DNA from: a phage
Strand: one strand, 5' to 3'
DNA length: 48,431 nt
Assembly (NCBI GenBank): GCA_012646845.1
Contig: GCA_012646845.1_4707.1
The position numbers and the translations under genes were made by a program. A model generated the notes under the pieces. The model did no database searches. It was given only the letters and a program-made list of their open reading frames with translations, and was not told the DNA's origin. Every line of letters begins with the position of its first letter. Position 1 is the stretch's first letter. Shown piece after piece: positions 3,526 through 35,500 of the stretch.

Positions 3526-4128
3526 TCACATGCTTTCTAGCATATTGACGATCATGGAACCCATACCGAAACTCGGTCTTTCACCGATGTACTCAGCAAG
3601 CTGGCGATGGACGTCTTTTGGATTTCCTTCTTCACCATCGGCGTCGATGTAAACCGAAAAAGAAAATGAATCGGAATCCACGCTGATAACCAGACGACGC
3701 TCATTGCGTTCCTTGAGTGTGTCGACAATAGCTGCTTTCAGTACCGCGATCGCGTTCATCGCGTGCAAGATATCCCCATCGGGTTTCGGCAGATCGATCT
3801 TTTCTTTCAGATCGATATTGATGTTGGTTACAATTGGGTTGAGGTCGACCTTGACATAATCGTTAGGGTACATGCGAATAATCGCACGATCGATATCTGA
3901 ACCGTAAAAGTCAACACGTGGCTTTAACACTTCTTTGTTTGGATCCATGTTTTCATCCATACCCGCCTGTAGAAAGCGTTCTACGTTATCCAGTTCACGA
4001 TAGATTGACGCTTCGATTTCTTTCAGATAGTTGGCTGCGGTTTCATGTTCTTTACGCAGCTCGTCTTTAAGGAGCTGTACGGTGGTTTCACTGGAACGAA
4101 TGCTGTTTGCGAATTGGGTAATTGACAT
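3526..4128 (-). CDS. hypothetical protein
   Basis: ORF track (TTG start at 4158); preferred ATG at 4128 with AAGGAA SD. Confidence 0.6.
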   Translation of the reverse strand: MSITQFANSIRSSETTVQLLKDELRKEHETAANYLKEIEASIYRELDNVERFLQAGMDENMDPNKEVLKPRVDFYGSDIDRAIIRMYPNDYVKVDLNPIVTNINIDLKEKIDLPKPDGDILHAMNAIAVLKAAIVDTLKERNERRLVISVDSDSFSFSVYIDADGEEGNPKDVHRQLAEYIGERPSFGMGSMIVNMLESM

Positions 4129-4176
4129 ATCGAATTCCTTAAATTCTCTTGAGTTCAATTAATGATGAAAAGCTGT

Positions 4177-4201
4177 AAAAAAGGGTGGGGCGAACCCCAC
4201 C
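4177..4201 (-). terminator. intrinsic terminator-like hairpin GGTGGGG-CGAA-CCCCACC followed by U-run on minus strand
   Basis: perfect 7-bp stem, tetraloop, A-run 4177-4182 on plus strand. Confidence 0.6.
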
Positions 4202-4226
4202 AAAACGTCAGACACACGCAGGAAAA

Positions 4227-4649
4227 TTAATTCAGTGACGTGTACAACGCATAACGACTATAGATCTCAACCGCTGGTCCGTTATGCGTTAACAGACCAT
4301 CTCGGTTGTAGTATTGGAAAAATGAATAACGTTTGTCGAAGTGATAAACGAAAGCAATGTCTTTGTCAAGACCTGTGATGCGCGGTCTGTTTTTATCTAG
4401 CAATGCTTTGACTTTTAACAGTGTTGCCGCACGTGCTTTAACATTAGGGATTAATCCATCACAGTCGATATAAACCGTGTAACCTGTTTCAGATGTTGCG
4501 ACGGTTGTATTGCGATTGATGCGGAAGATTTTTGTTTTGTATGTATCATCTTCAAGAATTGGGTTTTGTTTTTCGTATTTTCGTTTACGCAGAAATTCTA
4601 CAACGGTAATATAGTTAGCGGTGATATGTCCGGTTATAGCTTGTAACAT
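4227..4649 (-). CDS. hypothetical protein
   Basis: ORF track; conserved leader with AAGAGGA SD immediately upstream. Confidence 0.65.
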   Translation of the reverse strand: MLQAITGHITANYITVVEFLRKRKYEKQNPILEDDTYKTKIFRINRNTTVATSETGYTVYIDCDGLIPNVKARAATLLKVKALLDKNRPRITGLDKDIAFVYHFDKRYSFFQYYNRDGLLTHNGPAVEIYSRYALYTSLN

Positions 4650-4795
4650 CTTGACATCCTCTTATATTGGATTGATTACAGTTATCTTAAATAGGCGATA
4701 AGATATCTTGCTCTTATCACCTAGGTTGCGTTTTGTTAATAACAAAACGCATCGCCTTAGTGACCTATGTCACTAAGGTAATATAGCCGTGAAAT
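4650..4795 (-). promoter_or_regulatory. conserved promoter/leader element copy A: CTATATTAC motif, two inserted hairpins, conserved 28-nt RBS leader
   Basis: 4650-4677 and 4777-4794 are identical to 32967-32994 and 33039-33056; copy A carries an extra ~51 nt (4726-4776) forming two perfect hairpins. Confidence 0.45.
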
Positions 4796-4830
4796 AGACT
4801 GCGTTAACAAGAAATAAAACAGCATAAAAC

Positions 4831-4870
4831 CTCCTCCCCCATCCTTCAAGAGGACGGTGGGAAGAGGGAG
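4831..4870 (-). terminator. pyrimidine/purine-arm hairpin downstream of gene 4876..5277
   Basis: CCTCCTCCCCC...GGTGGGAAGAGGGAG imperfect inverted repeat (pairs with G-U in minus-strand RNA). Confidence 0.35.
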
Positions 4871-4875
4871 AGAGA

Positions 4876-5277
4876 TTAAATGTCGTGGACGGCATTGCCG
4901 TTTAACCAGCAATACAGCTTAACGCGACACGGATACCGCTTCGTTGCAGCAACCATTTCACCGCGTAAACGCTGGTAGATTTCATCCTGGTGTTCACGTT
5001 CAATGGGGTAATCAGCCCAGCATTCGATCATGACGTCACCATTAGTCAGAATCGTCGTACGCATCCTGTCCTGGACTCGACGATCTTTCCCGGCATTAGG
5101 GAAATACATCCCTTCAGTACGAATAAGGTCGCCACAGGGCATGACTAACCACTCATTCGTTTTGCCGGTATTCTTATAATCCATTACAGCTTGCATTGCG
5201 GTGTCAACGCTAAAAGAAACATAATTCCAAACGGGGGTCCAACGATAGATTGCGGGTTGTTCAAGTGTTTCGTTCAT
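4876..5277 (-). CDS. hypothetical protein
   Basis: ORF track; AGGAAA SD. Confidence 0.6.
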   Translation of the reverse strand: MNETLEQPAIYRWTPVWNYVSFSVDTAMQAVMDYKNTGKTNEWLVMPCGDLIRTEGMYFPNAGKDRRVQDRMRTTILTNGDVMIECWADYPIEREHQDEIYQRLRGEMVAATKRYPCRVKLYCWLNGNAVHDI

Positions 5278-5491
5278 GAGGCGCTTTTCCTATTTTTATT
5301 TTCTGCACAGGATAAATTCAACGGCATAAAGCCCTTCCCTGCCCTTATATGGGGCGGGAAGAGTTTATGACCGCAATGAGAATCTCTCACGACAAGCTCA
5401 CGACGATTATCGCATCACCCCGCGAGTGAGGGAGATCAGGATCACCTCCTACGTCGTAACGACAGTAATCCCGTTAACGTCGCCTTAGGCA

Positions 5492-6130
5492 TTATGCGAA
5501 GCGACGCATGTAACCTGCCAGATAGTTACGTGTATCGAAGTAAGCAATTTCAGGAATTGCGATATTAAGGTCGATAGCACGGATTTCAACTTGGCGACGG
5601 CTTTCATCATAGATCGCATCCATCAGACGCAGTACTGTCAGGAAAGCCATGCGGGTATGGTAGTCCAGCGGCATGTTGTCGATACCGCGATACAGATAAC
5701 GGTTTGCGTTAAATGCCCCTTCGCGGTTATCTTTCCAGATCTTCAGAATATCAGCAAAGGCGGTGCGGAAAACCTCAGGATTATCCACATCCAGTAACGC
5801 ACGGAAAGCAGACATTAAAGACCGCTGATGACGGATCAACGACTGCGGCGTTTGCGGCATGGTCGGACCCATTTCTTCAGCATATTTTTGGAACGGGGCA
5901 ACCAGGGTTGCGGCACGAGAAGCAACGATAGAAATAGCAGAGGATTCATTCACCGCTGGTTTCGCAGGCTTTTCTTCAACGGCGGTTTCCTTCTTCTCGA
6001 CAGCGACCGTTTCCGGTTGTGCTACAACGTTGCTGGTCGAAGCAGCAGCCACACCATTTTCCACGGTGGTCTCTACTGCTGTAATCTTTTCTTCCACTTG
6101 TGCGGAACGTTGGTCTTTATTCTTGCTCAT
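5492..6130 (-). CDS. hypothetical protein (acidic, low-complexity N-terminus)
   Basis: ORF track; AAAGGAAA SD. Confidence 0.6.
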   Translation of the reverse strand: MSKNKDQRSAQVEEKITAVETTVENGVAAASTSNVVAQPETVAVEKKETAVEEKPAKPAVNESSAISIVASRAATLVAPFQKYAEEMGPTMPQTPQSLIRHQRSLMSAFRALLDVDNPEVFRTAFADILKIWKDNREGAFNANRYLYRGIDNMPLDYHTRMAFLTVLRLMDAIYDESRRQVEIRAIDLNIAIPEIAYFDTRNYLAGYMRRFA

Positions 6131-6155
6131 GTCTATTTCCTTTCATTTAACAAGG

Positions 6156-7457
6156 TTAACTAATATAAAGTTCAGGATCGTAAGGCGCTAACGATACACT
6201 GGCGTTATGCATTGCTTTCATCATAGTGTTCATGAAAACGTTGTTTACACCGGTGATCTCTGCCCCGATCGCGTCTGGGGTTGGAGCCATCGCGTTACCG
6301 CAACAGGTAGCACAGTATTCCAACGGACCCGCTTTACAGCGCTGAGGATCACGTAACTTGATGGTTTGTCCTTCCAAGGAAGCGAATAATTCAGCATCAA
6401 TAAGTTTAAGCGCTGCGCCATCGATCATGTAACGGCCGACGAGCAGTTTATCTTTGATGTGGTCGCGGTTTACCGTGAACAGAATATGTTCTTGGGTACC
6501 GCAGTCGTCCATCGTGATCTTAAGGTTCTGTGTTGCACGTTGCGATTCTTTAGCCGTTTGTCCAGCTAAAGCGGTCAACGCACCACGCGAGAACGAACCA
6601 GCACGTGCACTGTTGTTGTACTCCGCCCAATGGTCGACGCGCATCCCTTCGGCCAGGCTGTGCGTGATAACGTTACGTTTACCAGGGTCAACGAAGTCGG
6701 CTTCAACCCCCATCATGATGTGTGTTTTCTTTCGAGTATTACCGAAACTCTTACCGGGGTTAATATAGAACCCTTCCGATTCATCGCCCTTAAAGGATTC
6801 CTTATCCATTTTGGTTAGCGTGGCTTCGAGTTTGATCAGTTCTTCAGGCGTAAACTTACCTTCCTCTTGCAAGCGCGCTAACTCTTTATCACGATAGGCA
6901 ATAATATCATCATCGACCGTTAACGCTTTATCGCTCATTGAAGGCACAATTAAGCGGTTAATGGCGGTTAATGCGCTGATATTGTTGGTGAATTTCTTCA
7001 CCTCGCTTGCGTACAGTGGACCAATCGGACGTTCGTTAGGATCGGGTATTCCCTCTTCGGGATCATCTGCTACGCGCGGTGCAATCAGTGATTCTAGTGT
7101 ACCGCTGGTTAACCGTCCTGCCTGATATTCAATCTGAATACCGAAAGCGTCATAAAGGACGTACATATTGAACAACGCTTCACCGAAGGTTGTGGTGGTT
7201 GTGTTCTTAACCGACGGTAGATCGCCAGGCGCAAGCTCCAACGGATCCCAGAAATTCAACAAGGGTTTTGTTGGTTCTGTTTCCCATTGGTGTTCTTCAC
7301 CGTCGATGGTAACCGTAACGATGTTACCTTGACGACGTAATTTAGGCTGATACTTCTCAGCGCCGCCTTCCGTAAAAGCAAATGCGTCGTTAATCCACTC
7401 AAGATAACGGTAGTGCCCTTCACGCAACGCGTAAAGGAAATAATCACGAGGTGTCAT
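6156..7457 (-). CDS. multisubunit RNA polymerase beta-prime-like subunit, C-terminal fragment
   Basis: ITMDDCGTQEHI matches bacterial beta-prime VTEDDCGTHEGI; downstream C-x2-C-x-G (CATCCGN) and AIGAE segments at the spacing seen in RpoC; AAGGAG SD. Confidence 0.6.
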   Translation of the reverse strand: MTPRDYFLYALREGHYRYLEWINDAFAFTEGGAEKYQPKLRRQGNIVTVTIDGEEHQWETEPTKPLLNFWDPLELAPGDLPSVKNTTTTTFGEALFNMYVLYDAFGIQIEYQAGRLTSGTLESLIAPRVADDPEEGIPDPNERPIGPLYASEVKKFTNNISALTAINRLIVPSMSDKALTVDDDIIAYRDKELARLQEEGKFTPEELIKLEATLTKMDKESFKGDESEGFYINPGKSFGNTRKKTHIMMGVEADFVDPGKRNVITHSLAEGMRVDHWAEYNNSARAGSFSRGALTALAGQTAKESQRATQNLKITMDDCGTQEHILFTVNRDHIKDKLLVGRYMIDGAALKLIDAELFASLEGQTIKLRDPQRCKAGPLEYCATCCGNAMAPTPDAIGAEITGVNNVFMNTMMKAMHNASVSLAPYDPELYIS

Positions 7458-7470
7458 GTAACAACTCCTT

Positions 7471-8343
7471 TTAAACGTGGGTCAGGTCACCGTGACGTGA
7501 AACGAACTCTGATAACGCTCGAGTTGCTTCTTTGGATTCTTCAGCCATCGGGAAGTTTGTGGTAACAAGTTCTCGTAGGACAGGAATGATTTCGTTATCT
7601 TCAAGATCGGAAGCCAACGCGAATGCGATCAGTTCTTGGGTGTACGCATACGGCTGCTGACGTAATGCGGCAAGCTGATTCCGACACTGCGACATTAGCA
7701 GGTCCAGTGGAACCGCTATCGTACCCCCTTCATCAATATACTGACCGAATACCGGTGGGAACGCATCGCTGATTACACGAATTCGTCGACGGATGCGATC
7801 AGGAATCTGGACGTTTTCTTCATCAGCGATATTTTCGCTGTCTTTCTCCAGCTTCTTGGTTAACACCTGCTGGATACGTGGGAGCAGGCTTGAATGCACG
7901 AAACTGATTAATGATGCTACGCCCGCAGCATCGACACCGTAAATATAATGCACGCATTCCGCTAGCGCTTCAGCTGTGGTGTAGTCTTCATCTTCAACGA
8001 TGGCGAGTAGAAAAGCGGTATCGTCATGTGTTTCCAGGTCTAATAACGTAGACGCTAACGCATGAAGATACTTCAGGCTATCCAGGGATAGTTGTCCTTC
8101 GTTAATCCGTATCCCGAAGGCAAGCAATTGTTGTTTATAAAGTTCGATACACCCGTTTGTTAAAATGACATCTAATTCGTTTAAATCGTATTGTTCCCCA
8201 GCACCTGACAACATCGTACTACAAAACGTTTCCAGTTGCTCGCATTTAAAATCTTGGTATAAACGATACATGCAGTGCTGTAACAGCGTACGCCTTGTTT
8301 CAGGGATCTTACCTTCTAACAAAGCCAAGACGGAATCAATCAT
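7471..8343 (-). CDS. hypothetical protein
   Basis: ORF track; ATG at 8343 preferred over GTG at 8349. Confidence 0.55.
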   Translation of the reverse strand: MIDSVLALLEGKIPETRRTLLQHCMYRLYQDFKCEQLETFCSTMLSGAGEQYDLNELDVILTNGCIELYKQQLLAFGIRINEGQLSLDSLKYLHALASTLLDLETHDDTAFLLAIVEDEDYTTAEALAECVHYIYGVDAAGVASLISFVHSSLLPRIQQVLTKKLEKDSENIADEENVQIPDRIRRRIRVISDAFPPVFGQYIDEGGTIAVPLDLLMSQCRNQLAALRQQPYAYTQELIAFALASDLEDNEIIPVLRELVTTNFPMAEESKEATRALSEFVSRHGDLTHV

Positions 8344-8439
8344 ATCCACTCCGATGCGGTAAATGTCTACTAGCTCTCATAATCTATTGAAGAAACTACC
8401 AGCTTACGCCAACTTAGATTAATCAGGAGTAACCATCCC

Positions 8440-8913
8440 ATGCCAGTTTCATCCAAACCAAGAAAAAAATCCGTAGGGAACCCTAAAGCTCAGGAAACAA
8501 CAGCGATTCGTTGGGACGAGTTACGTGAACCTATCGAAAACTGCGAATTGTTATTAGGTACCCTGGGTGCAGCTATTTACCAAGCGACGCAACCCTGTCG
8601 TTTACGATTAACCCAAAACAAACGTGATGAGTTCGTTGCGTTATCAACGAGCACGAATAAAGATCTGACCGAACTTCAAACCGAGTTGACGACGATCAAG
8701 AACTCCATTACGCCGATGTACGGTAAAGAAGTTGATGAACAAAGTATTCTGTTACAGTACAACTACGGGATGTCGTTAATGAACATCCTGGAACGCGCAT
8801 CCGATATTCTGCGTCCTGACGTTGCACGCCTAAGCCAACTGCGTGTCGAAGGGATGGAGAACCAGATCCGATTCGCTAACAGTGTTAAATCTCAAGGAGC
8901 CACCGAAGCATGA
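8440..8913 (+). CDS. hypothetical protein
   Basis: ORF track; ATG at 8440, stop overlaps next start (ATGA). Confidence 0.6.
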   Translation: MPVSSKPRKKSVGNPKAQETTAIRWDELREPIENCELLLGTLGAAIYQATQPCRLRLTQNKRDEFVALSTSTNKDLTELQTELTTIKNSITPMYGKEVDEQSILLQYNYGMSLMNILERASDILRPDVARLSQLRVEGMENQIRFANSVKSQGATEA

Positions 8914-10568
8914 GCGAACAAGAAAAAGAAGTCGTGACGAATCAGGAAGCCACCGAACGTTCAGAGTCGTCCGTTGAAACTACGATTCCGGCAAGTGAGG
9001 GTAAAGACGAAGCTGTCACTACCGAAGGAGATGTAGCGGCTCCAGAAGCAACCCGTGAAGAAGAACCCTCACATCCACCGCTGGTTGATTTCTCGAAGGC
9101 GACGATACGTTTCCAATGCGAAGACATTCGTCCTAAGAGCCCAAAGAAAACAAAACGTCAGCCATTGGTGTTACCGCTGTATTCTCCGCGTGTACAGACA
9201 GCGTATTACAAGGAATACATCAACGAAGCAATGGATACCGTACAAGCCATTGTCGCTCAACGCGGTAAACCTTCGGACGAGCAATTTGATAAATTCAGTA
9301 AAGCGGTAGTGCAATCGGTTGCTGATGGGCAATACCAACCGCGTGGGCCAGCTCATGATCGTGCGTTGGAACGTAAGGGCAGTCAGTGGACTAACGTACC
9401 CGTAGACTCATCGGGTGTTGGTCGTGTTATTCCTGGCATCCCGCAACCGAACCATATTCCTGATGATGTCGAAGCGCCGTTGACAGGAACCGATGCAATC
9501 TATTTTGCTATCCGTAATACGAAATCAGGTGCGCCTGCTGTAATGCCGTTATGGCATAGCGGTATTAAGCTGCAGTTCAATCCACCGTCAAATGAACGTG
9601 TCGCAATTATGCATGAACGTATTGCACGCGATAAAATCCTGGGTGGACGTGATAGTACCGGTTTCCTGTTTTCGGCAACCTCGATTATCACCATGAAACA
9701 TGCTATCGAATTAGCGTTAGAATGCTGTTACATGGCCAACGTACCGAACCTGGATATCCAGCGTTTGAAAGACATTATTCCGGTTACCGATGTTCCAGCA
9801 CTGTTGTTGAACGTGCTGGTAACCATGTACCCGTACGGGTATCCTTACGTGCAGACCTGCTATCAGAATCCAGAAACCTGCGACTATCGTGTTGAAGATA
9901 CCGTAAGCTTTGCGAAGCTCTATCAAGTTGACAACAGTGCGATTACCAAACGTATGCGACAGATCATGACCGAAGGTCCGGTCATGACCGATGAACTTTT
10001 GCGTGAGTATGCAAACGAACTGGGTGAAACAAACTCCCGTACGCTGGATCTGTCTGACAACGGTTCGGTTATCATTGAGCTTGAAGTACCGAAGATCTCA
10101 CGTCAGATTGCCATGGGCGAACGCTGGTTAAGCGATACGCTGGAAGATCTGCGTGATATTCTATCGCGTCCGTCAATGACTGAAGAAGAGCGTGATCGTG
10201 TTATTCGTGAACGTCAGTTCTATAGCTGGATGCGTCAGTATGATGCATGGATCAAATCGATGCATGTGTCGGTAAACGGTACCATGCGTCGTGTGAGCGA
10301 TGCGGATACGGCAACGGTATTAGCACAGCTGTCTCGTGACAGCGACCTTCGTGAACGCTATATCGATGGGTTGATGCAATTCATCGGCGATTCGACGATT
10401 GCGCTCGCGGCAATGCCTGCCTGGAAATGTCCGAAATGTAATACCGATATTGCTGACAATCTGCGTGACCAGAAATACTACGATCTGATTGCTTTGGATG
10501 TACCCCAGCTTTTTTTTACCCTAAACTCCGTCCAATCTCTTCAGGAGGGGATGGACGCGGTATTCTAA
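8910..10568 (+). CDS. hypothetical protein, 552 aa, acidic low-complexity N-terminus
   Basis: ORF track; AAGGAG SD; no motif recognised with confidence. Confidence 0.65.
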   Translation: MSEQEKEVVTNQEATERSESSVETTIPASEGKDEAVTTEGDVAAPEATREEEPSHPPLVDFSKATIRFQCEDIRPKSPKKTKRQPLVLPLYSPRVQTAYYKEYINEAMDTVQAIVAQRGKPSDEQFDKFSKAVVQSVADGQYQPRGPAHDRALERKGSQWTNVPVDSSGVGRVIPGIPQPNHIPDDVEAPLTGTDAIYFAIRNTKSGAPAVMPLWHSGIKLQFNPPSNERVAIMHERIARDKILGGRDSTGFLFSATSIITMKHAIELALECCYMANVPNLDIQRLKDIIPVTDVPALLLNVLVTMYPYGYPYVQTCYQNPETCDYRVEDTVSFAKLYQVDNSAITKRMRQIMTEGPVMTDELLREYANELGETNSRTLDLSDNGSVIIELEVPKISRQIAMGERWLSDTLEDLRDILSRPSMTEEERDRVIRERQFYSWMRQYDAWIKSMHVSVNGTMRRVSDADTATVLAQLSRDSDLRERYIDGLMQFIGDSTIALAAMPAWKCPKCNTDIADNLRDQKYYDLIALDVPQLFFTLNSVQSLQEGMDAVF

Positions 10569-12541: not shown

Positions 12542-15154
12542 TTATACGTCCGGCGTAAAATCAAAAGGAACGTCCGTACGAATGATATCATAACGTTTTC
12601 CTAAGAAATAGAACTCTTCGGGAACCAGACCGGGAACGATGCTATCGCCGATGAACTGTGGGTATGCCCAGATGTACTGAGTGAGTCCTTCGAACATATC
12701 CAGGTTATTTGCGTGGTTACCCATGATACGTTTCCAGAGTTCGCGTTTATACGGTGTTTTAACATCGAACCCATAAAGCGGTGCGAGGTCTTCACCAGGA
12801 ACAAATCCCAGGTAATAGTGGATCTGACTAACCGGGAAACCAAGCGTATCTCGCGGAATGGTGATCGCTTGCTCAGCCTTGGTGACATGCGTCTCAATAA
12901 TCCAGTCGTAGCACTCCGAATAGAACCGATCGAATTTCTCTGGATTATACCACGCTTTGGGAAGATTCAGTTTCTCCGTGAACGCGTTCGACATGATCGT
13001 CGGCAAGAACGGAAGAACGCCGGTTTTGATCTGTGTGTATTTCGATTTTACCCGATTGACTAGATTCCAGCAACTGTATCCTAATTGATCGTTGCAGAAC
13101 TCAACGTAGAGATCGTAATCCCCACCCGATAATGGATTATTAATATCGCCGATGTCTGCCGCATATTTGTTGGGGTATCGGTTATTGAAAGCCAGTTTGG
13201 TTTGGTAATCGTAAATGCACGGTTTATTGTTCTTCGTGTTAATCCACCACCAGGGTTCACCCACCTGCACACAAATGTCTTGGACATGCGGGTAGATGAT
13301 ATCAGCAAACGCGGTTAACACATCCCCTAACCACGCCATCGCGTGTTGGTTGCATGGCGACAACAACCAAGACGGCGGCGTATATCCGGTTGCTGCTATG
13401 TTTCCTTCCCAATCCTGCTGCGCCCACTCGAACGGGCATGCCGTACTCATCAATTCGTAACTTAAACTGATTGTAACAGAGAAATGGTGTTTTGCAGCGT
13501 ATGCGGCGAAAGCTTCATGCCATGCGATACAGGGTGGGTTGAGTACATCTGTGGTGTTCACCAGTAACTTACTCGCACTTGGTGTCCAGACAGTATCGTA
13601 GAAATGCGACATTCCAACATAGTGCACTAATTCATCTTGATATCCCGCATAAACCAGGTTCTCAAATACGCGTTCCGGCGTGATATTGTAATGGTCGTCA
13701 TAAGCGGTTATCGCACGAAGCTCGTGTGGTGTACATTGGTGACGATTAACCGTCATTTCCTGATACACCCCATCAATAGGAAGAATCTCGAGGGTTAAAC
13801 AGAGGTCGATCGGTGTTTCCAGGTAGGTCGTTTCTGTAGCACCTTCCTTATAATGTCGAGAACTCATGCTGAACATCAACGACGTGACCGATTCGAGTTC
13901 GATAGGTTCGTCAGCATAGAACCCCGCCATTGCGTCGTTGAAATCGATCGTTACGATTGCGCTTGTACCGTCTTCAGAGACGTCGGTGGCGTATCGGGTT
14001 AATGAGATATACTGACGGCTATCGTCTTTGTGTACGACGGTTAAAACCGGCGGGTTTTCGGTATCTGCAAAGTTCCGCTGGTCACCAGTAAACGTGATCT
14101 TGGCTTTAAAGATCAAACCGAGCAACGACGTCATGGGATCATACGCAACACAACCATGATCTAGCGTATCCGTTGTCCGCCATTCTATCCCTACCAACCC
14201 GTTAGCGGTATGGCATCGCATATACGCATTAAGTGTCATGTCTTCACTGACAACCGCGAAGTTCTCTGTAGATTGACCATTGATAATCCAATACATCGGT
14301 TGCCAGAGGTTACGCGTGCCTTTTGCGTAGCGGTAGGTTGGTGCACCTTTAGGGTTGCCGTTATTGAGATGGAATACAGCCGTACCTTGGTAATGATCGT
14401 TCGTGTTAATCGGAACACTGTACGCGTCGCCGAGGTCCGTACGTTCGACCTTCGTGACAGTTGCGTTTTCAAACAGCCCACGTAGTGTAGGAAGACCAAT
14501 GTCATCAGGCGCGTTTTCTCGGCGAATCGCGTCCGCGATGCGGTGGGCTAGGGCGGGGTAAATGGTCTCACCCTGCTGTAGGTTTGCAAGACCTACAAAG
14601 CGATCGGGGTTGATACCAGCAATCAATAACTCGACATCGCCCTTCGTTCTATCGTCATGGAGGTATTTCAGTCCAGTAAGATCAAGATGTTGAATTAACG
14701 ACAACAGATTGTACTTACGGTTTTCAACAGTCAGTGCAAGATCACCCGCCCAAACCAAACTTCCCTCATCCGCCGTTACTCTAACGGATTGGCGGCCTGT
14801 GGTGGACGTTGTTGTCGTTTTATTTAATTGTCCTTGTAGGAAGTCGGTTGCGAGGTCAAAGGCAACGCCGTAACGGTCAGCGACCGCCTGCATGATTTCA
14901 CGTAACTGGGTATCTTCTTCAATGATGATCTTGACGGGTATTCCCAAGAACGCCTTGGCGAGGTCTCGCTTAACCATCGAGACGAATACGGATTTGTAAT
15001 ATCGGCCTCCATCTTTCCCTTTAAAAAGAATGGAGGTTGTTTCGGGTGACGATAGAACACGTGCAAATACAACATCGTCGAAAGTAAGAGAAAGTCCGTT
15101 TTTCTCGTTGGTTAATCTTAGTATTTCATTTTGCGCGGTTTCATGTAACTTCAT
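12542..15154 (-). CDS. tail fibre/tailspike-like protein with shared N-terminal anchor module
   Basis: 870 aa; N-terminal ~170 aa homologous to 21881..23635, 21196..21723 and 27286..28116 (RDLAKAFLGIP; NKTTTTSTTGRQSV...LTGLKYLHDDRTKG). Confidence 0.7.
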   Translation of the reverse strand: MKLHETAQNEILRLTNEKNGLSLTFDDVVFARVLSSPETTSILFKGKDGGRYYKSVFVSMVKRDLAKAFLGIPVKIIIEEDTQLREIMQAVADRYGVAFDLATDFLQGQLNKTTTTSTTGRQSVRVTADEGSLVWAGDLALTVENRKYNLLSLIQHLDLTGLKYLHDDRTKGDVELLIAGINPDRFVGLANLQQGETIYPALAHRIADAIRRENAPDDIGLPTLRGLFENATVTKVERTDLGDAYSVPINTNDHYQGTAVFHLNNGNPKGAPTYRYAKGTRNLWQPMYWIINGQSTENFAVVSEDMTLNAYMRCHTANGLVGIEWRTTDTLDHGCVAYDPMTSLLGLIFKAKITFTGDQRNFADTENPPVLTVVHKDDSRQYISLTRYATDVSEDGTSAIVTIDFNDAMAGFYADEPIELESVTSLMFSMSSRHYKEGATETTYLETPIDLCLTLEILPIDGVYQEMTVNRHQCTPHELRAITAYDDHYNITPERVFENLVYAGYQDELVHYVGMSHFYDTVWTPSASKLLVNTTDVLNPPCIAWHEAFAAYAAKHHFSVTISLSYELMSTACPFEWAQQDWEGNIAATGYTPPSWLLSPCNQHAMAWLGDVLTAFADIIYPHVQDICVQVGEPWWWINTKNNKPCIYDYQTKLAFNNRYPNKYAADIGDINNPLSGGDYDLYVEFCNDQLGYSCWNLVNRVKSKYTQIKTGVLPFLPTIMSNAFTEKLNLPKAWYNPEKFDRFYSECYDWIIETHVTKAEQAITIPRDTLGFPVSQIHYYLGFVPGEDLAPLYGFDVKTPYKRELWKRIMGNHANNLDMFEGLTQYIWAYPQFIGDSIVPGLVPEEFYFLGKRYDIIRTDVPFDFTPDV

Positions 15155-15176
15155 TGAAAACCTCAGCCCTTTAGAA

Positions 15177-15818
15177 TTAGATGTACTGCTTACCGCCCAC
15201 GAAGGAAGTTAGCCAGTTCCCACTGACAAGCTGTGATACCCAGCCAGGCACTGCCCTGCCATTCTGGCTCATGACATTACCACACCAGCCAGGGAATCCG
15301 GGACGGATATAATAGAAAGTTAAATTGTAGAGATGGCAATTCCATACCGCAACGTTATGTTTACCAGAAACCGCTTTAAAGACAAACGCAACGGGTAAAG
15401 GCGACGATAACAATTCGGTCACAGGGACGGCCGACCAGTTCGCATTCGCATTCCATGGTTGCCAGGTATGGCTACGCGAGTCGCAAAATACGTTACCGTT
15501 GTTACCGCGCCCACCCGCATGCCACCACAGCGACGGACTCATGTTCTTAAGTGAGGTAAATTGCTGTGGTGGAATATTAGGAATAATAACAGGGTTGGTA
15601 CCTTGCCCATGTTTCTTTTCTTTTGCGTTTACATACCCACTTATCGATTCGAGGTATTTGACACCAGGATAATTGTTCTGGACTTGTGTCGCAATATCAC
15701 GGACATCAAACGTCCAGCAGATCATGGTGTTGTAGTAAGCATCGGTGTTGTCGTACCAAGCGTTACCATCTTGTAAACGTGCGCCACTATTCGGTGTTTT
15801 ATCTGTGCTTATAGCCAT
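15177..15818 (-). CDS. hypothetical protein, paralogue sharing C-terminal module with 15925..16590
   Basis: C-terminus GFPGWCGNVMSQNGRAVPGWVSQLVSGNWLTSFVGGKQY nearly identical to neighbour; ~100-bp near-identical DNA. Confidence 0.65.
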   Translation of the reverse strand: MAISTDKTPNSGARLQDGNAWYDNTDAYYNTMICWTFDVRDIATQVQNNYPGVKYLESISGYVNAKEKKHGQGTNPVIIPNIPPQQFTSLKNMSPSLWWHAGGRGNNGNVFCDSRSHTWQPWNANANWSAVPVTELLSSPLPVAFVFKAVSGKHNVAVWNCHLYNLTFYYIRPGFPGWCGNVMSQNGRAVPGWVSQLVSGNWLTSFVGGKQYI

Positions 15819-15924
15819 GTTATTGTCCTATACTACGATGATTGAGATATCGAATGTCGGACGCTTGGTGCCGTCTGGTAGTACATACAGAAACACCCAC
15901 AGATAAAACAATAACTCCCATCAA

Positions 15925-31378: not shown

Positions 31379-31551
31379 AAACTTCTCCTTACTTTCTCTG
31401 ATAAAGCGACGATTCTAATTTTAGAAACATCCCTAATGCGAATGCGAGTAATGACGCACGTACCCACATACCTCCTTGAAAACTGTTGTACAACATAAAG
31501 ACCAGAGCGATGCCGCCCATATGCAGGCGGCACTTATCGAACAGTGTTGGT

Positions 31552-31761
31552 TTATACATAGGAGATTAAACGTTGAATGATTTTTACTTTGCCTTTGCCT
31601 GGACCTTTCTTGCGACGATTCAACAGACGGATACGGTTTCCAATTACGGAATCACCATCATAATCAGCCTGGAACCGTGATAAAAAAGCAGGTTGTACCC
31701 GGTCGACACCAGGATTGCTATAGAAACGATTGAAACTTAAAAGATGGTTAGTTGGAATCAT
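31552..31761 (-). CDS. hypothetical protein
   Basis: ORF track; ATG at 31761 with AAGGA SD. Confidence 0.4.
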   Translation of the reverse strand: MIPTNHLLSFNRFYSNPGVDRVQPAFLSRFQADYDGDSVIGNRIRLLNRRKKGPGKGKVKIIQRLISYV

Positions 31762-31779
31762 TGTATTGTCCTTATTCAA

Positions 31780-32130
31780 TTATTTACCAAGATAGAGGTA
31801 TTCTCCGCCCTGAATAACACCGGTTGATGGGTCAACAAGTATGCGAACCCGTGCATAGGTCTTGAAAGAGGGGTTGAAAACTTCGAAGTCAGTCACTTTC
31901 AATTTCACGCTGGGGTTAATTGGGTTCTTAACTCCTGGAAGTTCTTTCGGTAATCCGAAGTCGACTCCATATTCTTCAAGGTCCGCTGGCGTCATGCTCT
32001 CCATGGCCATGTAGATTGCTTTTGCTTTATCGTAAACCTCTGGACTATCCAGCAATCCAGCCTGCGCTGAACCGACAACACTACCGAACAGAATAGCAAC
32101 AGCAACAAACAATTTAGTTAATGTTTTCAT
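31780..32130 (-). CDS. secreted hypothetical protein (signal peptide)
   Basis: MKTLTKLFVAVAILFGSVVGSAQA; AAGGAAA SD. Confidence 0.6.
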   Translation of the reverse strand: MKTLTKLFVAVAILFGSVVGSAQAGLLDSPEVYDKAKAIYMAMESMTPADLEEYGVDFGLPKELPGVKNPINPSVKLKVTDFEVFNPSFKTYARVRILVDPSTGVIQGGEYLYLGK

Positions 32131-32168
32131 GATCGTTTCCTTAATAACTTAAATAAACCAATTTAATA

Positions 32169-32591
32169 TTAACGTACGGCTGCTACGCTGTTAGCGCATG
32201 CCTGAATATCATCGGTATTTACGATGATGGTTTCGTTAAATGCACGAATACGCGCACGACGTGCTTCTTTAAGGCTGGCGATTGCGTTAGCAGCTTGGTC
32301 TGTATTCGCAAGGCTAATAACTGGGATCAAGCGCATGTCAGGACTGCAGATATTCAATGCTTGGTATACACGCCCATTGATTCCTACGGTATCAGACATC
32401 GGATAGTGCGCACGACATTGAAATTGACCCATGACAACAAGCGAACGATCGGAGATGCCAATCTGATAACGACCGTCTTCGCTGTAGGTGTAGCAGTTAT
32501 TCCCACGAGCCATCCAGTTAGCTTGTGCTTGTGCACTAACAAAAGCCAGGGTAGCGACGATAGCAAATACGATATTTTTGAACAGTTTCAT
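32169..32591 (-). CDS. secreted hypothetical protein (signal peptide)
   Basis: MKLFKNIVFAIVATLAFVSAQAQA; AAGGATC SD. Confidence 0.6.
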   Translation of the reverse strand: MKLFKNIVFAIVATLAFVSAQAQANWMARGNNCYTYSEDGRYQIGISDRSLVVMGQFQCRAHYPMSDTVGINGRVYQALNICSPDMRLIPVISLANTDQAANAIASLKEARRARIRAFNETIIVNTDDIQACANSVAAVR

Positions 32592-32609
32592 GATAAAGAT
32601 CCTTATTGA

Positions 32610-32642
32610 AATAAAAACGGTATAAAGCCCCCATTTAGGGGG
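32610..32642 (-). terminator. hairpin CCCCC-ATTTA-GGGGG followed by U-rich tract on minus strand
   Basis: read directly; lies just downstream of 32649..32966. Confidence 0.5.
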
Positions 32643-32648
32643 ACCTGA

Positions 32649-32966
32649 TTAGTTTGCACTTAAGAAATGACCCAGAACCGTTACGATTGGAAACAGTCCC
32701 GTAACCGTATTATCGCCCGAAAACATCATCTTTGAGTCGTTAACGGTGATGAAACGGATGTCGGTTGCAGACCCATCGATAGCGACAAAACGCATCGAGT
32801 TCGGTGGAAGATCCTCAACAACTTCCACGAGATGTTCACGATTTTCAAAGGCTTCTTTAACACGACGCATGAAACGAATCAATGTTCCTTCAGCGTCGGC
32901 TTCCAAATGACCTAGGATATCGCGATTATTACGAATAGCGAATACAGCCATTTTAAACATACACAT
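32649..32966 (-). CDS. hypothetical protein
   Basis: ORF track; conserved leader identical to that of 4227..4649. Confidence 0.6.
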   Translation of the reverse strand: MCMFKMAVFAIRNNRDILGHLEADAEGTLIRFMRRVKEAFENREHLVEVVEDLPPNSMRFVAIDGSATDIRFITVNDSKMMFSGDNTVTGLFPIVTVLGHFLSAN

Positions 32967-33056
32967 CTTGACATCCTCTTATATTGGATTGATTGCTAAT
33001 AATTCAAGGTGAAGCCAATGACTCCATTGCTTCACCTAGGTAATATAGCCGTGAAA
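32967..33056 (-). promoter_or_regulatory. conserved promoter/leader element copy B (CTATATTAC motif, hairpin, conserved RBS leader)
   Basis: 32967-32994 and 33039-33056 identical to copy A; motif overlaps stop codon of 33036..34028. Confidence 0.45.
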
Positions 33057-34028
33057 ATTAATGCATTGACTCACGTCTTTGCTACATGGGGGCTGAATCT
33101 CGTCGATGCGTTTAACCACAACCTCAGGGAAAAGTTGGAGGATTTCATCAGGTGGTGTCGTACCTTCTGTCCAACGATAACGTTCAACCTTTTCGATGCG
33201 TGGACTCCCTCCGACGTCAGCGATACGAAAGATACAGGCGATACCTAAATCGAAACATACGCTGTAAATATCTTCCGTGCCTCCTTTATCGGCAAGTATT
33301 TTCGCAAAATGCTCGTTATCGGGAAGAATGGCTAAATTACGGATACACCAAACATTATCACCCATTTCTTCAAGTTTTGGGTAGGTTAAAGTGTGCCCGT
33401 AGCATGTTAACCATCGATGATTTTCTAGGCGGAAGTCCTTATCTCCTGGCCGATAACCCAGTATCACCTCGGTGTAGAAGAGATTAGGCATATTGAGCAG
33501 TTCTCTAATCGTTGGACCGGTATGCTCCCAGAGACAGATTTGTTTACGGTCTATATCGTAATCTGTGACGTTACTCACCTCCCAACTTATCGTAAGTTCA
33601 TCGACAACGTGCCAACCTAAAGCATGTTCACCACCAAGCAGATTAACAATAGCTGCTATCTCGTGCTTGTCAAATACCCCCAAATTCTGCGGTGGTTGCA
33701 TCGTACGTAATGGCTCCCATAACGCACTGTAATCATAGAGCAAATGACGACATAAACTTTTTGTTAGGGGGGTATGTTCAGTAAACAGTGGAAGAATCAC
33801 CGTATCCAACAATGGACGTAATGGATGATTGTCGGGTGGCAACGAAGCGTATAGCCGACTTTCCTTTTTAGGAATGTCGTAACCAAACCCGTAACGCTCC
33901 GAAATGAGTGCAATCAACACTTTTGCTATGCGATTACGTAGCATGCGATGGATATCATCAGTGTAACAGAATTTCGGTCTGTTACCACAAACGAAGGTGA
34001 AGTATCTGGGCGTTAGCGCAGCCATCAT
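33036..34028 (-). CDS. hypothetical protein
   Basis: ORF track; GAGGGAAAG SD. Confidence 0.6.
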   Translation of the reverse strand: MMAALTPRYFTFVCGNRPKFCYTDDIHRMLRNRIAKVLIALISERYGFGYDIPKKESRLYASLPPDNHPLRPLLDTVILPLFTEHTPLTKSLCRHLLYDYSALWEPLRTMQPPQNLGVFDKHEIAAIVNLLGGEHALGWHVVDELTISWEVSNVTDYDIDRKQICLWEHTGPTIRELLNMPNLFYTEVILGYRPGDKDFRLENHRWLTCYGHTLTYPKLEEMGDNVWCIRNLAILPDNEHFAKILADKGGTEDIYSVCFDLGIACIFRIADVGGSPRIEKVERYRWTEGTTPPDEILQLFPEVVVKRIDEIQPPCSKDVSQCINFHGYIT

Positions 34029-34035
34029 CTTTCCC

Positions 34036-34482
34036 TCAATCTAAATAGTAGGTGATGGAAAGATCTTTTCCATCGAACACGATATCCGTGCAGTCATGGA
34101 CCGTCGGTAATACCATTTTGGCGGCTACCGGAACATACGCCTGCAACTCCATGAAGTTATCCATACGGAATGCACGACGCACCATCAGCGGCGTTAGTGT
34201 AAACGTTACGCTGACGCTACCACCTGAGGTCAAGTGCATTATCGCATGCCCATGATCGCACCAACAATGGTTTTCGATCCATCCGGTGTAAATCAGAATA
34301 TTTTTATCTTCGTCGTAATAAGCAATGCCAGTCTGCTTTAAACGGCTGGTAAACCGAGAGGCTTGCTCGTAGCCTGCACGCAACATTCGAGCAACCAGTC
34401 GAGTATTGTTAGCGATTCGATTCTGTTCGTTGGTTTTTGTGGCTTTGAAAAGTTCGATACGTTCTGCTTTTGTAATTTGCAT
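34036..34482 (-). CDS. hypothetical protein
   Basis: ORF track; AGGACAG SD. Confidence 0.55.
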   Translation of the reverse strand: MQITKAERIELFKATKTNEQNRIANNTRLVARMLRAGYEQASRFTSRLKQTGIAYYDEDKNILIYTGWIENHCWCDHGHAIMHLTSGGSVSVTFTLTPLMVRRAFRMDNFMELQAYVPVAAKMVLPTVHDCTDIVFDGKDLSITYYLD

Positions 34483-34484
34483 GG

Positions 34485-34901
34485 TTACTGTCCTATTGAA
34501 TTGTGTTTAAATAATTGGATAAATGGGGTACCAAACAAAGGGCTATATGAATGTATTCGGTTCTCCTCTGATTCGTAATACTCGATAGGCCACGATATTG
34601 GTTTAGGTAGACGATCTAATGCTTGCAACACAGCGAGTTTAACATCATTACTTTCGATCGGATACGGAAGTACCGTTGACGAACAGAACACACGTGTTCG
34701 ATGTAAATAAATGAGATGCTGTTGTAGCTTAGACAAACGCCTACGCTTGATTAAGAAACTGGTTACGCGACAATCGGGATGATCGTAACGGTAACGTGCG
34801 CTGTCGAAATAAGCATATTCTCTTCTAACAACGAGATACTTTAACGCATGTATGAATGAATAACGACGTAGTTCTCCATCAGCCAACATAACACGGATCA
34901 T
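34485..34901 (-). CDS. hypothetical protein
   Basis: ORF track; TAATG overlap with upstream gene. Confidence 0.55.
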   Translation of the reverse strand: MIRVMLADGELRRYSFIHALKYLVVRREYAYFDSARYRYDHPDCRVTSFLIKRRRLSKLQQHLIYLHRTRVFCSSTVLPYPIESNDVKLAVLQALDRLPKPISWPIEYYESEENRIHSYSPLFGTPFIQLFKHNSIGQ

Positions 34902-35500
34902 TACTTAGGCTCCAGAATCGGACCGAACAACCAGAAAGTCAGACGCTGATAGATCTGTTCGATGACGGCGGATTCTGTTTGCTCTTCCCACGATTTCCCT
35001 TTCTTATACTTTATTTCTGGCGGAACATCGCCAGCGTAAACGTACCCCGTTGAGAAGTCCCACGCCAGCCGTTTACCGAAAGCGGGTAAGAACACCTCTT
35101 CGAATCTGAACGCTTTCGAATTCCAATGCAGCAATTGATCGGATTCAACATGTAAAGTTTTATTACGTTTGCTTGGCATGTTTCCGAAGTACTGAACGAT
35201 GGCTGACTTCATAACCCGATCAGCGAAGTCCTTGGCTTCAGCCTCATCGAGGGGTGGTAGATGATGCGACAGATTTAGCTTGCGTTGTTCGATATCGATC
35301 TTACGCATTGCTTTAATTAAATCGCCAGGGGTAATTTTACCCTTATGTCCTTCCTGTCGGTGTATGAAACACCCCTGGAATAATACGCAAAGCTCTTGAG
35401 GTGCGGTACTTTCCATTCGTCCGTAAGCAACAATCACCGATCGACGACGATCGATAACATCACGGATAAACCGCGGCTCAGTAATACTCACCACTGTCAT
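34901..35500 (-). CDS. hypothetical protein
   Basis: ORF track; AAGAGGG SD. Confidence 0.6.
   Translation of the reverse strand: MTVVSITEPRFIRDVIDRRRSVIVAYGRMESTAPQELCVLFQGCFIHRQEGHKGKITPGDLIKAMRKIDIEQRKLNLSHHLPPLDEAEAKDFADRVMKSAIVQYFGNMPSKRNKTLHVESDQLLHWNSKAFRFEEVFLPAFGKRLAWDFSTGYVYAGDVPPEIKYKKGKSWEEQTESAVIEQIYQRLTFWLFGPILEPK

Follow-up and report, generated by a model that had tools for sequence, protein, structure and literature searches.

Putative virion RNA polymerase early promoters with stem-loop and leader modules, and a two-palindrome cassette probably spread by recombination, in a relative of the jumbo phage Goslar

The stretch of DNA considered here, referred to as the window, is a phage contig of 48,431 nucleotides (nt; contig GCA_012646845.1_4707.1 of assembly GCA_012646845.1), and the subject of this account is an arrangement that is repeated upstream of two of its minus-strand genes, A and B. 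At both loci a promoter-like element is followed by a stem-loop and then by a leader that supplies the ribosome-binding site and start codon, and at copy A there is additionally a segment of two palindromes, called cassette M1 (Table 1). Searches of Pfam and PHROGs returned no family for genes A and B or for their upstream neighbours. The window segments 4000-9000 and 31500-35500 show 94.9% and 90.7% nucleotide identity, respectively, to Escherichia phage vB_EcoM_Goslar (NC_048170.1, Chimalliviridae), which is the sole matching record for both segments in the phage collection, and the window is a relative of this E. coli jumbo phage, 91-95% identical to it. The annotation of Goslar includes several genes resembling those for the beta subunit of RNA polymerase (RNAP), as well as a nuclear shell protein and PhuZ. 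On the strength of this annotation, Goslar is placed in the group of phages in which the early genes are transcribed by a multisubunit RNAP packaged within the virion (PMC7598289, PMC13282480).

Table 1. Coordinates of the features at the two loci, numbered along the window (ORF, open reading frame)
Feature	Position	Strand	Description
Intrinsic terminator after gene A	4184..4201	minus	GGTGGGGTTCGCCCCACC and a T-run; Goslar annotates a terminator at the same place
Gene A	4227..4649	minus	140 aa; homologue of Goslar gp075; no known family
Leader, copy A	4647..4677	minus	AATCAATCCAATATAAGAGGATGTCAAGATG; includes the Shine-Dalgarno sequence AAGAGGA and ATG
Native start-proximal stem-loop, copy A	4692..4723	minus	TAGGTGATAAGA-GCAAGATA-TCTTATCGCCTA; N8 loop
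Cassette M1	4717..4769	minus	53 bp; 3' arm of palindrome 1, CGAT, palindrome 2, second copy of ACCTAGGTGA
Palindrome 2	4728..4750	minus	GCGTTTTGTT-ATT-AACAAAACGC, perfect
Palindrome 1	4755..4778	minus	CCTTAGTGAC-ATAG-GTCACTAAGG, perfect; 5' arm is promoter -7 to +3
Putative early promoter, copy A	4770..4807	minus	TTAAC 4803-4807, TTTCA 4790-4794, TATATTAC 4778-4785, CTTAGTGA 4770-4777
Terminator-like stem	4830..4867	minus	16-bp stem, then GTTTTAT; closes the upstream gene just 5' of promoter A
Gene B	32649..32966	minus	105 aa; homologue of Goslar gp105; no known family
Leader, copy B	32964..32994	minus	identical to copy A
Start-proximal stem-loop, copy B	33007..33037	minus	AGGTGAAGCAATG-GAGT-CATTGGCTTCACCT
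Putative early promoter, copy B	33032..33069	minus	TCAAT ... TTTCACGGCTATATTACCTAGGTGA
Upstream ORF at copy B (gp106 homologue)	33036..34028	minus	330 aa; ends with TAG at 33036-33038

A preliminary description of the window had claimed that the two genes share an identical 31-nt leader, complete with ribosome-binding site and ATG, and an identical motif further upstream. Both claims stand. The leader is found at exactly two sites in the window against none expected, with the identity extending to 32 nt. The 18-nt motif TTTCACGGCTATATTACC is similarly present at two sites only, 4777-4794 and 33039-33056, with no other within three mismatches, and the identity between the two copies extends to 19 nt. 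Taken by itself, the 8-mer TATATTAC shows no enrichment there, with three sites in the window where 1.8 would be expected, and the third of these (4606-4614) lies within gene A at a place where Goslar has CTATATCAC and so is not conserved. Counts of bare TATATTAC or CTATATTAC were rejected as a signal for being uninformative in this way; the signal is carried by the extended motif alone.

The 18-19-nt motif is the core of an element of approximately 38 nt, for which an alignment of 12 Goslar sites gives the consensus TTAAYnCA-N5-TTTCACGGCTATATTACCTnnGTGA. The positions TA.ATTAC.T...TGA are invariant in this alignment, and the core TA[CT]ATTAC is invariant in the 12 sites and in both window copies. 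Across the whole Goslar genome the pattern TAYATTACYTNNNTGA has 12 sites on the minus strand and none on the plus strand. A position weight matrix built from these sites and scanned over both sequences returns 13 sites in Goslar with scores of 29-55 and a further one at 19.9, all others being at 12 or less, and in the window it returns only copy A (45.8) and copy B (47.9) over a background below 12, which amounts to some 13 sites per 237 kb in Goslar and two in the window. All 13 Goslar sites are located upstream of minus-strand genes, namely gp004, gp021, gp040, gp047, gp075, gp105, gp159, gp175, gp182, gp200, gp214, gp225 and gp246, the last being the nuclear-shell gene chmA. The genome-wide motif search that the preliminary description had proposed has a divided outcome, with the extended element occupying gene-upstream positions on one strand but with the bare 8-mer carrying no enrichment in the window; rather than being confined to two sites without positional bias, the extended motif marks 13 sites in Goslar, every one of them upstream of a gene on the minus strand. 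The element also precedes gp021 homologues with as little as 42% protein identity (42-61%; contigs from Salmonella, Shigella and E. coli assemblies), and promoter B is conserved in 19 alleles of the B site.

The likeness to phiKZ early promoters, which the preliminary description had put forward, is correct and proves stronger than was stated when the element is compared with the published early consensus strings. These are TATATTAC for phiKZ, TTAWTAVAA_HYWTTTRARR_BTATATTACDWHDGTG for 201phi2-1, TBYAWWWWWTTTCARRYAKATATTATYWAAGTGWA, containing TTTCARRYAKATATTATYWAAGTGWA, for N1M2 and WTTTYAAACCTACATTATY for EL, with a consensus also published for OBP (PMC7058600). Four blocks of the Goslar-type element, TTAWT, TTT.A, TATATTAC and GTG, agree with these strings and have the same spacing. 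The early motif of the phiKZ type is rich in A and T and has its centre close to -10 (PMC7598289), and the early promoter has been described as an extended -10 element with a T-rich block upstream of -19, of which phiKZ chmA (PHIKZ054) has an example (PMC8244752), with conservation at -10, -20 and -30 (PMC11512511). The TTTCA and TTAAY blocks stand at fixed distances from the Goslar core, as in the described T-rich and near -30 blocks. Thus the promoters of phiKZ, 201phi2-1, OBP, EL and N1M2 and those of the Goslar type have in common the core, a TTT(C/R)A block about 10 nt upstream of it, a third block near -30 and a terminal GTG, and they likewise lie upstream of early-type genes including chmA in phages that encode virion and non-virion multisubunit RNAPs. 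They differ in that the Goslar type has CACGG between the T-rich block and the core, where the phiKZ-like promoters are purine-rich, is often joined to an inverted repeat that spans the start, has fewer copies and is predicted from sequence. By this comparison the element would be a member of the phiKZ-type class of virion-RNAP early promoters; it is the polymerase, the start site and the early timing that we infer.

An early promoter could in principle also be one read by the host RNAP with sigma-70, as in the cassettes of T4-type phages discussed below. TATATT does resemble a -10 hexamer, TTAAY is found roughly at the -35 position, and a sigma-70 scan of copy A gives TTAACG-16 nt-TATATT, a 9/12 match. 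The same scan finds no match in copy B, however, and the strongest conservation (TTTCACGG, ACYT and TGA) falls in what would be the sigma-70 spacer and discriminator, which are normally not conserved. Moreover, the blocks and their spacing agree with the published virion-RNAP promoters of relatives, and development of the phiKZ type is independent of the host RNAP (PMC13282480, PMC10914365). A sigma-70 promoter is for these reasons considered very improbable.

Three further observations were made around the Goslar promoters. The annotated start of gp047 (49584-49772) is upstream of the early promoter at 49732, and the real start is probably the ATG that follows CGAGGATACAGTC. Upstream of the gp021 early promoter there is an unannotated gap of 854 nt (Goslar 14972-15825), which holds GC-rich hairpins and AT-rich repeats. 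Finally, the 5' untranslated region (UTR) of gp021, GAATAGAAATCAATACGTT...AACGTGAAA, is nearly unchanged in phages where the gp021 protein is only 42-61% identical (L079, L075 and L077; Goslar 14972-15060), making this a non-coding stretch that is more conserved than gp021 itself.

If the promoter is of the phiKZ type, the most likely start of transcription is the G of the invariant TGA or a neighbouring base (4771 and 33033, to within 3 nt). A transcript begun there would have a 5' UTR of 122 nt at copy A, or 69 nt in copy-A alleles that lack the cassette, and one of 67 nt at copy B. Each window copy has an inverted repeat whose first bases fall within the start region or slightly upstream of it. 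The native stem-loop of the A site likewise begins at the start region in alleles without the cassette, and across the nine alleles of the A-site alignment the stem of this native structure is kept whereas its loop is variable. The copy-A UTR has a folding z-score of -5.9, and within cassette M1 the two palindromes together fold at -27.9 kcal/mol (z = -6.6). For stem-loop B the value depends on where the transcript is taken to begin, being z = -3.2 when 5 nt upstream of the TGA are included and z = -0.5 when folded from G33033. Because the repeats extend upstream of the predicted start, their outer base pairs would be unable to form in locally initiated transcripts and could form only in read-through RNA or in DNA. 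A universal start-proximal hairpin was considered and rejected as a rule on the grounds of folding energy. The invariant TGA does lie in the 5' arm of a stem at 8/13 Goslar sites against 29% of controls (p = 0.014), and a start hairpin across the 13 sites is a tendency only.

The palindromes of copy A differ between genomes in their loops. The loop of palindrome 1, ATAG in the window (4765-4768), appears as its reverse complement, CTAT, in the near-identical genome L058, and the loop of palindrome 2, ATT in the window (4738-4740), appears as AAT in phage X, L053 and L055. Inversion of a loop between near-identical genomes suggests a flip-flop of the hairpin at the level of DNA, although the change in palindrome 2 could be a single substitution instead. 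Small inversions of the spacer between short inverted repeats are well known under the name of flip-flop in plastid DNA; the pattern of spacer inversion is the same here, but it is found in a phage promoter region. A search of both loci against Rfam 15 gave sub-threshold hits only, the best being SNORA68 at 29.7 bits against a gathering threshold of 43, a chance match to two hairpins. The terminator scan found no terminator-like site, defined as a GC-rich stem with a U-run, within 4692-4778, and no U-tract after either palindrome; on the minus strand it flagged only the terminator behind gene A (4182-4201).

A small ORF of 11 codons (ATG CGT TTT GTT ATT AAC AAA ACG CAA CCT AGG TGA; 4717-4752, minus strand) runs through M1 and ends at the second invariant TGA, and a similar ORF of 10 codons is carried by the related cassette M3. 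A leader peptide was rejected as an explanation for M1, as this ORF is badly spaced from a Shine-Dalgarno sequence and the reading frames do not agree from one cassette type to another; both ORFs are probably incidental.

The double hairpin between motif and leader had earlier been described as an insertion of 51 nt. The hairpins are indeed perfect, and the DNA is extra in comparison with most orthologues, but its size is 53 bp; the smaller figure arose because the two paralogous copies, rather than orthologues, had been compared. At the orthologous Goslar site ...TACATTACCTTAGTGA runs directly into TAAGAGC with no palindromes, whereas the window has 53 bp more there, flanked by ACCTTAGTGA and ACCTAGGTGA. 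These flanks are repeats of one another, for which reason the placement of M1 is ambiguous by up to 7 nt. Comparison of 23 A-site alleles found 11 without a cassette (Goslar, Y, ERZ1643250, SKEV, ERZ1026852, JACXXQ, L056, L080, L081, L087 and L088), seven with M1 (the window, X, L053, L054, L055, L057 and L058), three with a different cassette, M2 (OGZS, L084 and L086), and two with no promoter (L083 and L085). An identical gene-A protein of 140 aa is found both with M1 and, in L056, without any cassette, and none of the 19 B-site alleles has a cassette.

This distribution favours gain of the cassette. The alternative is that the long form of copy A is ancestral and that the short alleles arose by deletion between direct repeats, in which case there would be no insertion in the window. 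In favour of this alternative, slippage deletion classically acts on palindromes that lie between direct repeats, as they do here with repeats of 10 nt. Furthermore, the two short types, ...ACCTTAGTGA followed by TAAG (Goslar, L056) and ...ACCTAGGTGA followed by TAAG (ERZ1643250), are both obtainable from the long form at different crossovers, and M3 is stably fixed at gp200. Set against it, the 11/23 short alleles occur in both upstream-gene backgrounds and include the most divergent relatives (56-79% protein identity), SKEV is short despite flanks of the window/X type, and other lineages hold M2 at the same site, so that M1 and M2 cannot both be ancestral. An ancestral long form is a possibility that we regard as rather doubtful, and gain of the cassette is tentatively preferred.

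M1 belongs to a family of cassettes of 43-53 bp, each with two palindromes, that are situated between TATATTAC and a repeated ACCTnnnTGA. In their common architecture X1 (ACCTnnnTGA, promoter -6 to +3) is separated by a loop from its complement, X', after which come CGA and a short GC hairpin, and A/TT then leads to X2 (again ACCTnnnTGA). Identical or homologous cassettes are present at three early promoters, those of gp021, gp075 and gp200, and the phages concerned share only 52-90% identity in the adjacent proteins. M1 itself, which in the window and in six further alleles stands at the promoter of gp075, has the family layout with an expanded second palindrome. M2 occurs in phage X at the promoter of gp021 and in a phage from a Salmonella assembly at that of gp075; the two share an identical tract of 54 nt and diverge directly after TTACCTT. 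L074 has at its gp021 promoter an M2-like form with a hybrid X1/X', M3 is a fixed feature of the gp200 promoter, being present there in Goslar, X and Y, and M4, at the gp021 promoter of a phage from a Shigella sonnei assembly with 52% protein identity, has a core that is 23/24 identical to that of M2. M4 keeps palindrome 1 through a compensatory change, with CTTGA/TCAAG instead of CATGA/TCATG. The second palindrome of M1 is homologous to CGCGTAAGCG of M2 and M4. No cassette is present at the gp021 promoter of Goslar, Y, L075 (61%) or L079 (42%), and a pattern scan of IMG/VR recovered true members only in Goslar-like genomes, with one member per promoter. By these sequence comparisons the cassette appears to be an old, conserved unit with a patchy distribution at non-orthologous promoters.

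The sequences, the cassette family, its distribution and the presence/absence polymorphism are direct observations, from which we infer the recombination mechanism and any effect on expression. The best-supported account of how the cassettes spread is homology-guided copying, or gene conversion, among the approximately 13 paralogous early promoters and between co-infecting relatives, for which the promoter of about 40 bp would provide the left homology and the short TTACCT(T) box the right homology. Such copying would explain the identical tracts with precisely those bounds, the hybrid in L074, the mosaic upstream genes and the extended upstream sequence that is common to the gp047 and A-site cassettes. 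The cassettes might otherwise be an autonomous non-coding mobile element, similar to a miniature inverted-repeat transposable element or acting by homing, that targets and duplicates TTACCTT. A constant position at the promoter, a flanking direct repeat (TTACCTT in M2, and 13 nt in phage X at gp021) and the identical 54-nt tract at non-orthologous sites of divergent phages would all fit with this idea. Yet the cassette has no terminal inverted repeats, its ends being CATAGG...AACGCA, the flanking repeat is imperfect in M1 (8/10) and variable in length (4-13 nt), and each type is single-copy in the genomes that allow a check. Moreover, the repeat belongs to the promoter consensus, so homology-guided conversion would suffice without a transposase, and an autonomous element is accordingly viewed as very unlikely. 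Under gene conversion, paralogous cassettes would swap segments by recombination, and it is this that would place the same leader before two unrelated ORFs, give rise to the mosaic neighbours and add 53 bp to copy A. As the promoter consensus is intact through +3, copy A should still fire, and its transcript would carry around 53 extra nt, including one complete stable stem-loop formed by palindrome 2.

The leader is rich in A and C and ends with AAGAGGA-N7-ATG. The search that had been proposed for it places it before the homologues of gp075 and gp105 and nowhere else, as the closest of the remaining matches has 10 mismatches. The leader is near-invariant in the 19 B-site alleles, and in L080, a phage from an E. 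coli O157 assembly, the A-site leader is 31/31 identical whereas the coding sequence differs from codon 2 onwards (79% protein identity). In L083 and L085 the gene-A protein is the same as in L084 but the upstream region (~600-700) is unrelated and without early promoter or hairpin, and homology to the other alleles sets in precisely at the leader's 5' edge, between GC and AATCAATCC. In L087 (56% protein identity) the homology stops after AAGAGGATG, and in L088 the leader has drifted. The same A/G polymorphism is found at leader position 17 at both loci and is concordant within 5/6 genomes. These alleles point to a genuine shared translation-initiation module, the edges of which would be recombination joints.

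Rather than reflecting recombination, the identity of the leaders could mark the binding site of a trans-acting translational regulator, either a protein or a small RNA, that controls gp075 and gp105 together. It would account for conservation that goes beyond the Shine-Dalgarno sequence and ATG and exceeds that of the adjacent coding sequence, and the concordance at position 17 would fit as well. On the other hand, the window has no sequence of useful length complementary to the leader, no Rfam family matches the leader loci, the leader has diverged in L088, and the breakpoints in L083, L085 and L087 coincide with the leader edges exactly as recombination predicts. A shared regulator is thus judged unlikely. 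The leader 12-mer AATCAATCCAAT has two opposite-strand copies within Goslar coding genes (103978 and 174598, plus strand) that are not in the window; an antisense partner was therefore rejected, with nothing convincing in the window and the Goslar 12-mers not conserved there. As a separate matter, four short-read (Logan) contigs, L059-L062, begin inside the leader, 27 nt before the ATG, and it is because of the 31-32-nt repeat that short-read assemblies break there.

Whether the cassettes do anything for the genes downstream is a further question. Instead of being passengers of gene conversion they may be a selected cis-regulatory device, such as an attenuator or source of short RNA, a stabiliser of the mRNA or a one-way insulator. 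In the insulator version the first hairpin could form only in read-through transcripts, its 5' arm being upstream of the local start. The core GGCGACGCGTAAGCGTTACCT is 23/24 identical between phages in which the adjacent protein is approximately 52% identical, compensatory changes keep palindrome 1 paired and M3 is fixed at gp200, all of which would be expected of a selected device; high identity may equally mean recent transfer, though. There is also precedent, in that phiKZ and 201phi2-1 produce abundant short RNAs through premature termination in 5' UTRs (PMC10914365, PMC11512511) and the stem-loops of T4-type cassettes act as terminators or attenuators (PMC2839356). The short-RNA regions of phiKZ and 201phi2-1 and M1 are both structured elements between start site and start codon; M1 has no U-tract or terminator signature, and neither palindrome was flagged as terminator-like. 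The variable presence of cassettes with identical downstream proteins indicates that they are dispensable, and their loop sequences flip freely. A cis-regulatory role can consequently be held only tentatively. Less probable still is the stronger proposal that selection maintains the cassettes as a dedicated add-on, which would home to the initiation box TTACCT of early promoters in chimalliviruses of E. coli, Shigella and Salmonella and alter early transcripts. If that were true, the add-on could act through promoter-proximal pausing at the duplicated box, one-way insulation from read-through or a 5' tag for stability or for export from the early infection vesicle, and it would represent a regulatory layer undescribed for any jumbo phage.

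Amongst known systems, the Goslar-type arrangement appears from its sequence to be most similar to the promoter-early stem-loops (PeSLs), which are mobile regulatory cassettes of T4-type phages (PMC2839356, PMC4122927). Both are composite intergenic cassettes of early promoter, stem-loop and Shine-Dalgarno sequence with start codon, both run from the upstream stop codon to the downstream Shine-Dalgarno sequence and ATG, both recur along the genome, for the most part ahead of genes without a known function, and at both of them close relatives differ by indels, replaced genes and shuffling. The Goslar type would not be a strict PeSL because its promoter is apparently not of the sigma-70 type; PeSL promoters are, and they number about 50 per genome as opposed to about 13. 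The movable two-palindrome add-on, moreover, has no described PeSL counterpart.

On balance, the two loci are probably PeSL-like cassettes of early promoter, stem-loop and leader that are built on a virion-RNAP promoter and have been reshuffled by recombination. Several points nevertheless speak against this interpretation. The literature searched contains no 5'-end or timing map of any Goslar-like phage, and start and polymerase are assigned by homology alone. The 13 Goslar sites are fewer than the 28-32 early promoters reported for phiKZ, and the matrix scan placed no such motif near the RNAP subunit gene of the window (6156-7457). The folding energies at the 13 sites are not different from those of random genomic segments (p = 0.11-0.16), and the inverted repeats reach 3-7 nt upstream of the predicted start, which a purely RNA role as a 5' stem-loop leaves unexplained. 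As for recombination, M1 is present in one copy in the window and one in phage X, with no donor copy found in either, and the deletion argument given above applies to both short alleles, ACCTTAGTGA and ACCTAGGTGA.

The surroundings of promoter A are also mosaic. Two unrelated alternative genes, each with its own terminator, abut promoter A in different Goslar-like genomes (window 4808-4900; A-site alignment), with the homology junction just 5' of the promoter. In the window the upstream gene is closed by the terminator-like stem of Table 1, which folds at -28.4 kcal/mol (z = -4.0) but was not flagged by a simple terminator scan. Gene A itself is a single-gene unit, since an intrinsic terminator follows directly after it. 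At copy B, the motif had been described as overlapping the stop codon of the upstream gene, which is correct for the window allele but specific to it; the gp106 homologues elsewhere are of 317-318 aa and stop before promoter B, and the window ORF, longer by 12-13 codons, reads through the promoter because of an indel near its 3' end.

Goslar-like contigs of 234-250 kb are present in many bacterial isolate assemblies at NCBI, and proteins from these assemblies are labelled as E. coli, E. coli O157, Shigella sonnei, Shigella flexneri and Salmonella enterica. Among the complete E. coli genomes of RefSeq and the species representatives of GTDB there is no match to the window phage. The occurrence of such contigs in isolate assemblies hints at carrier-state or contaminating phage in surveillance isolates.

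The definition of the promoter is useful and testable, and it is accompanied by a new small recombining element; no new mechanism or principle is evidenced. Goslar serves as the model of nucleus-forming jumbo phages in E. coli, and no promoter for it was reported in the literature searched. The element of about 38 bp provides a concrete candidate for the early promoter and a predicted early regulon of approximately 13 units that includes chmA. A Goslar-type promoter could directly serve engineering, for which the phiKZ consensus early promoter is already in use (PMC12676376). A ready test of how 5' UTR structure bears on transcription by the virion RNAP and on the fate of early mRNA is offered by the promoter that occurs naturally without a cassette, with M1 and with M2 ahead of identical proteins. 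With regard to the family as a whole, the cassettes suggest that chimallivirus genomes, like those of T4-type phages, would use repeated modules of promoter, stem-loop and leader as recombination joints, which may help to explain their mosaic ORFan regions.

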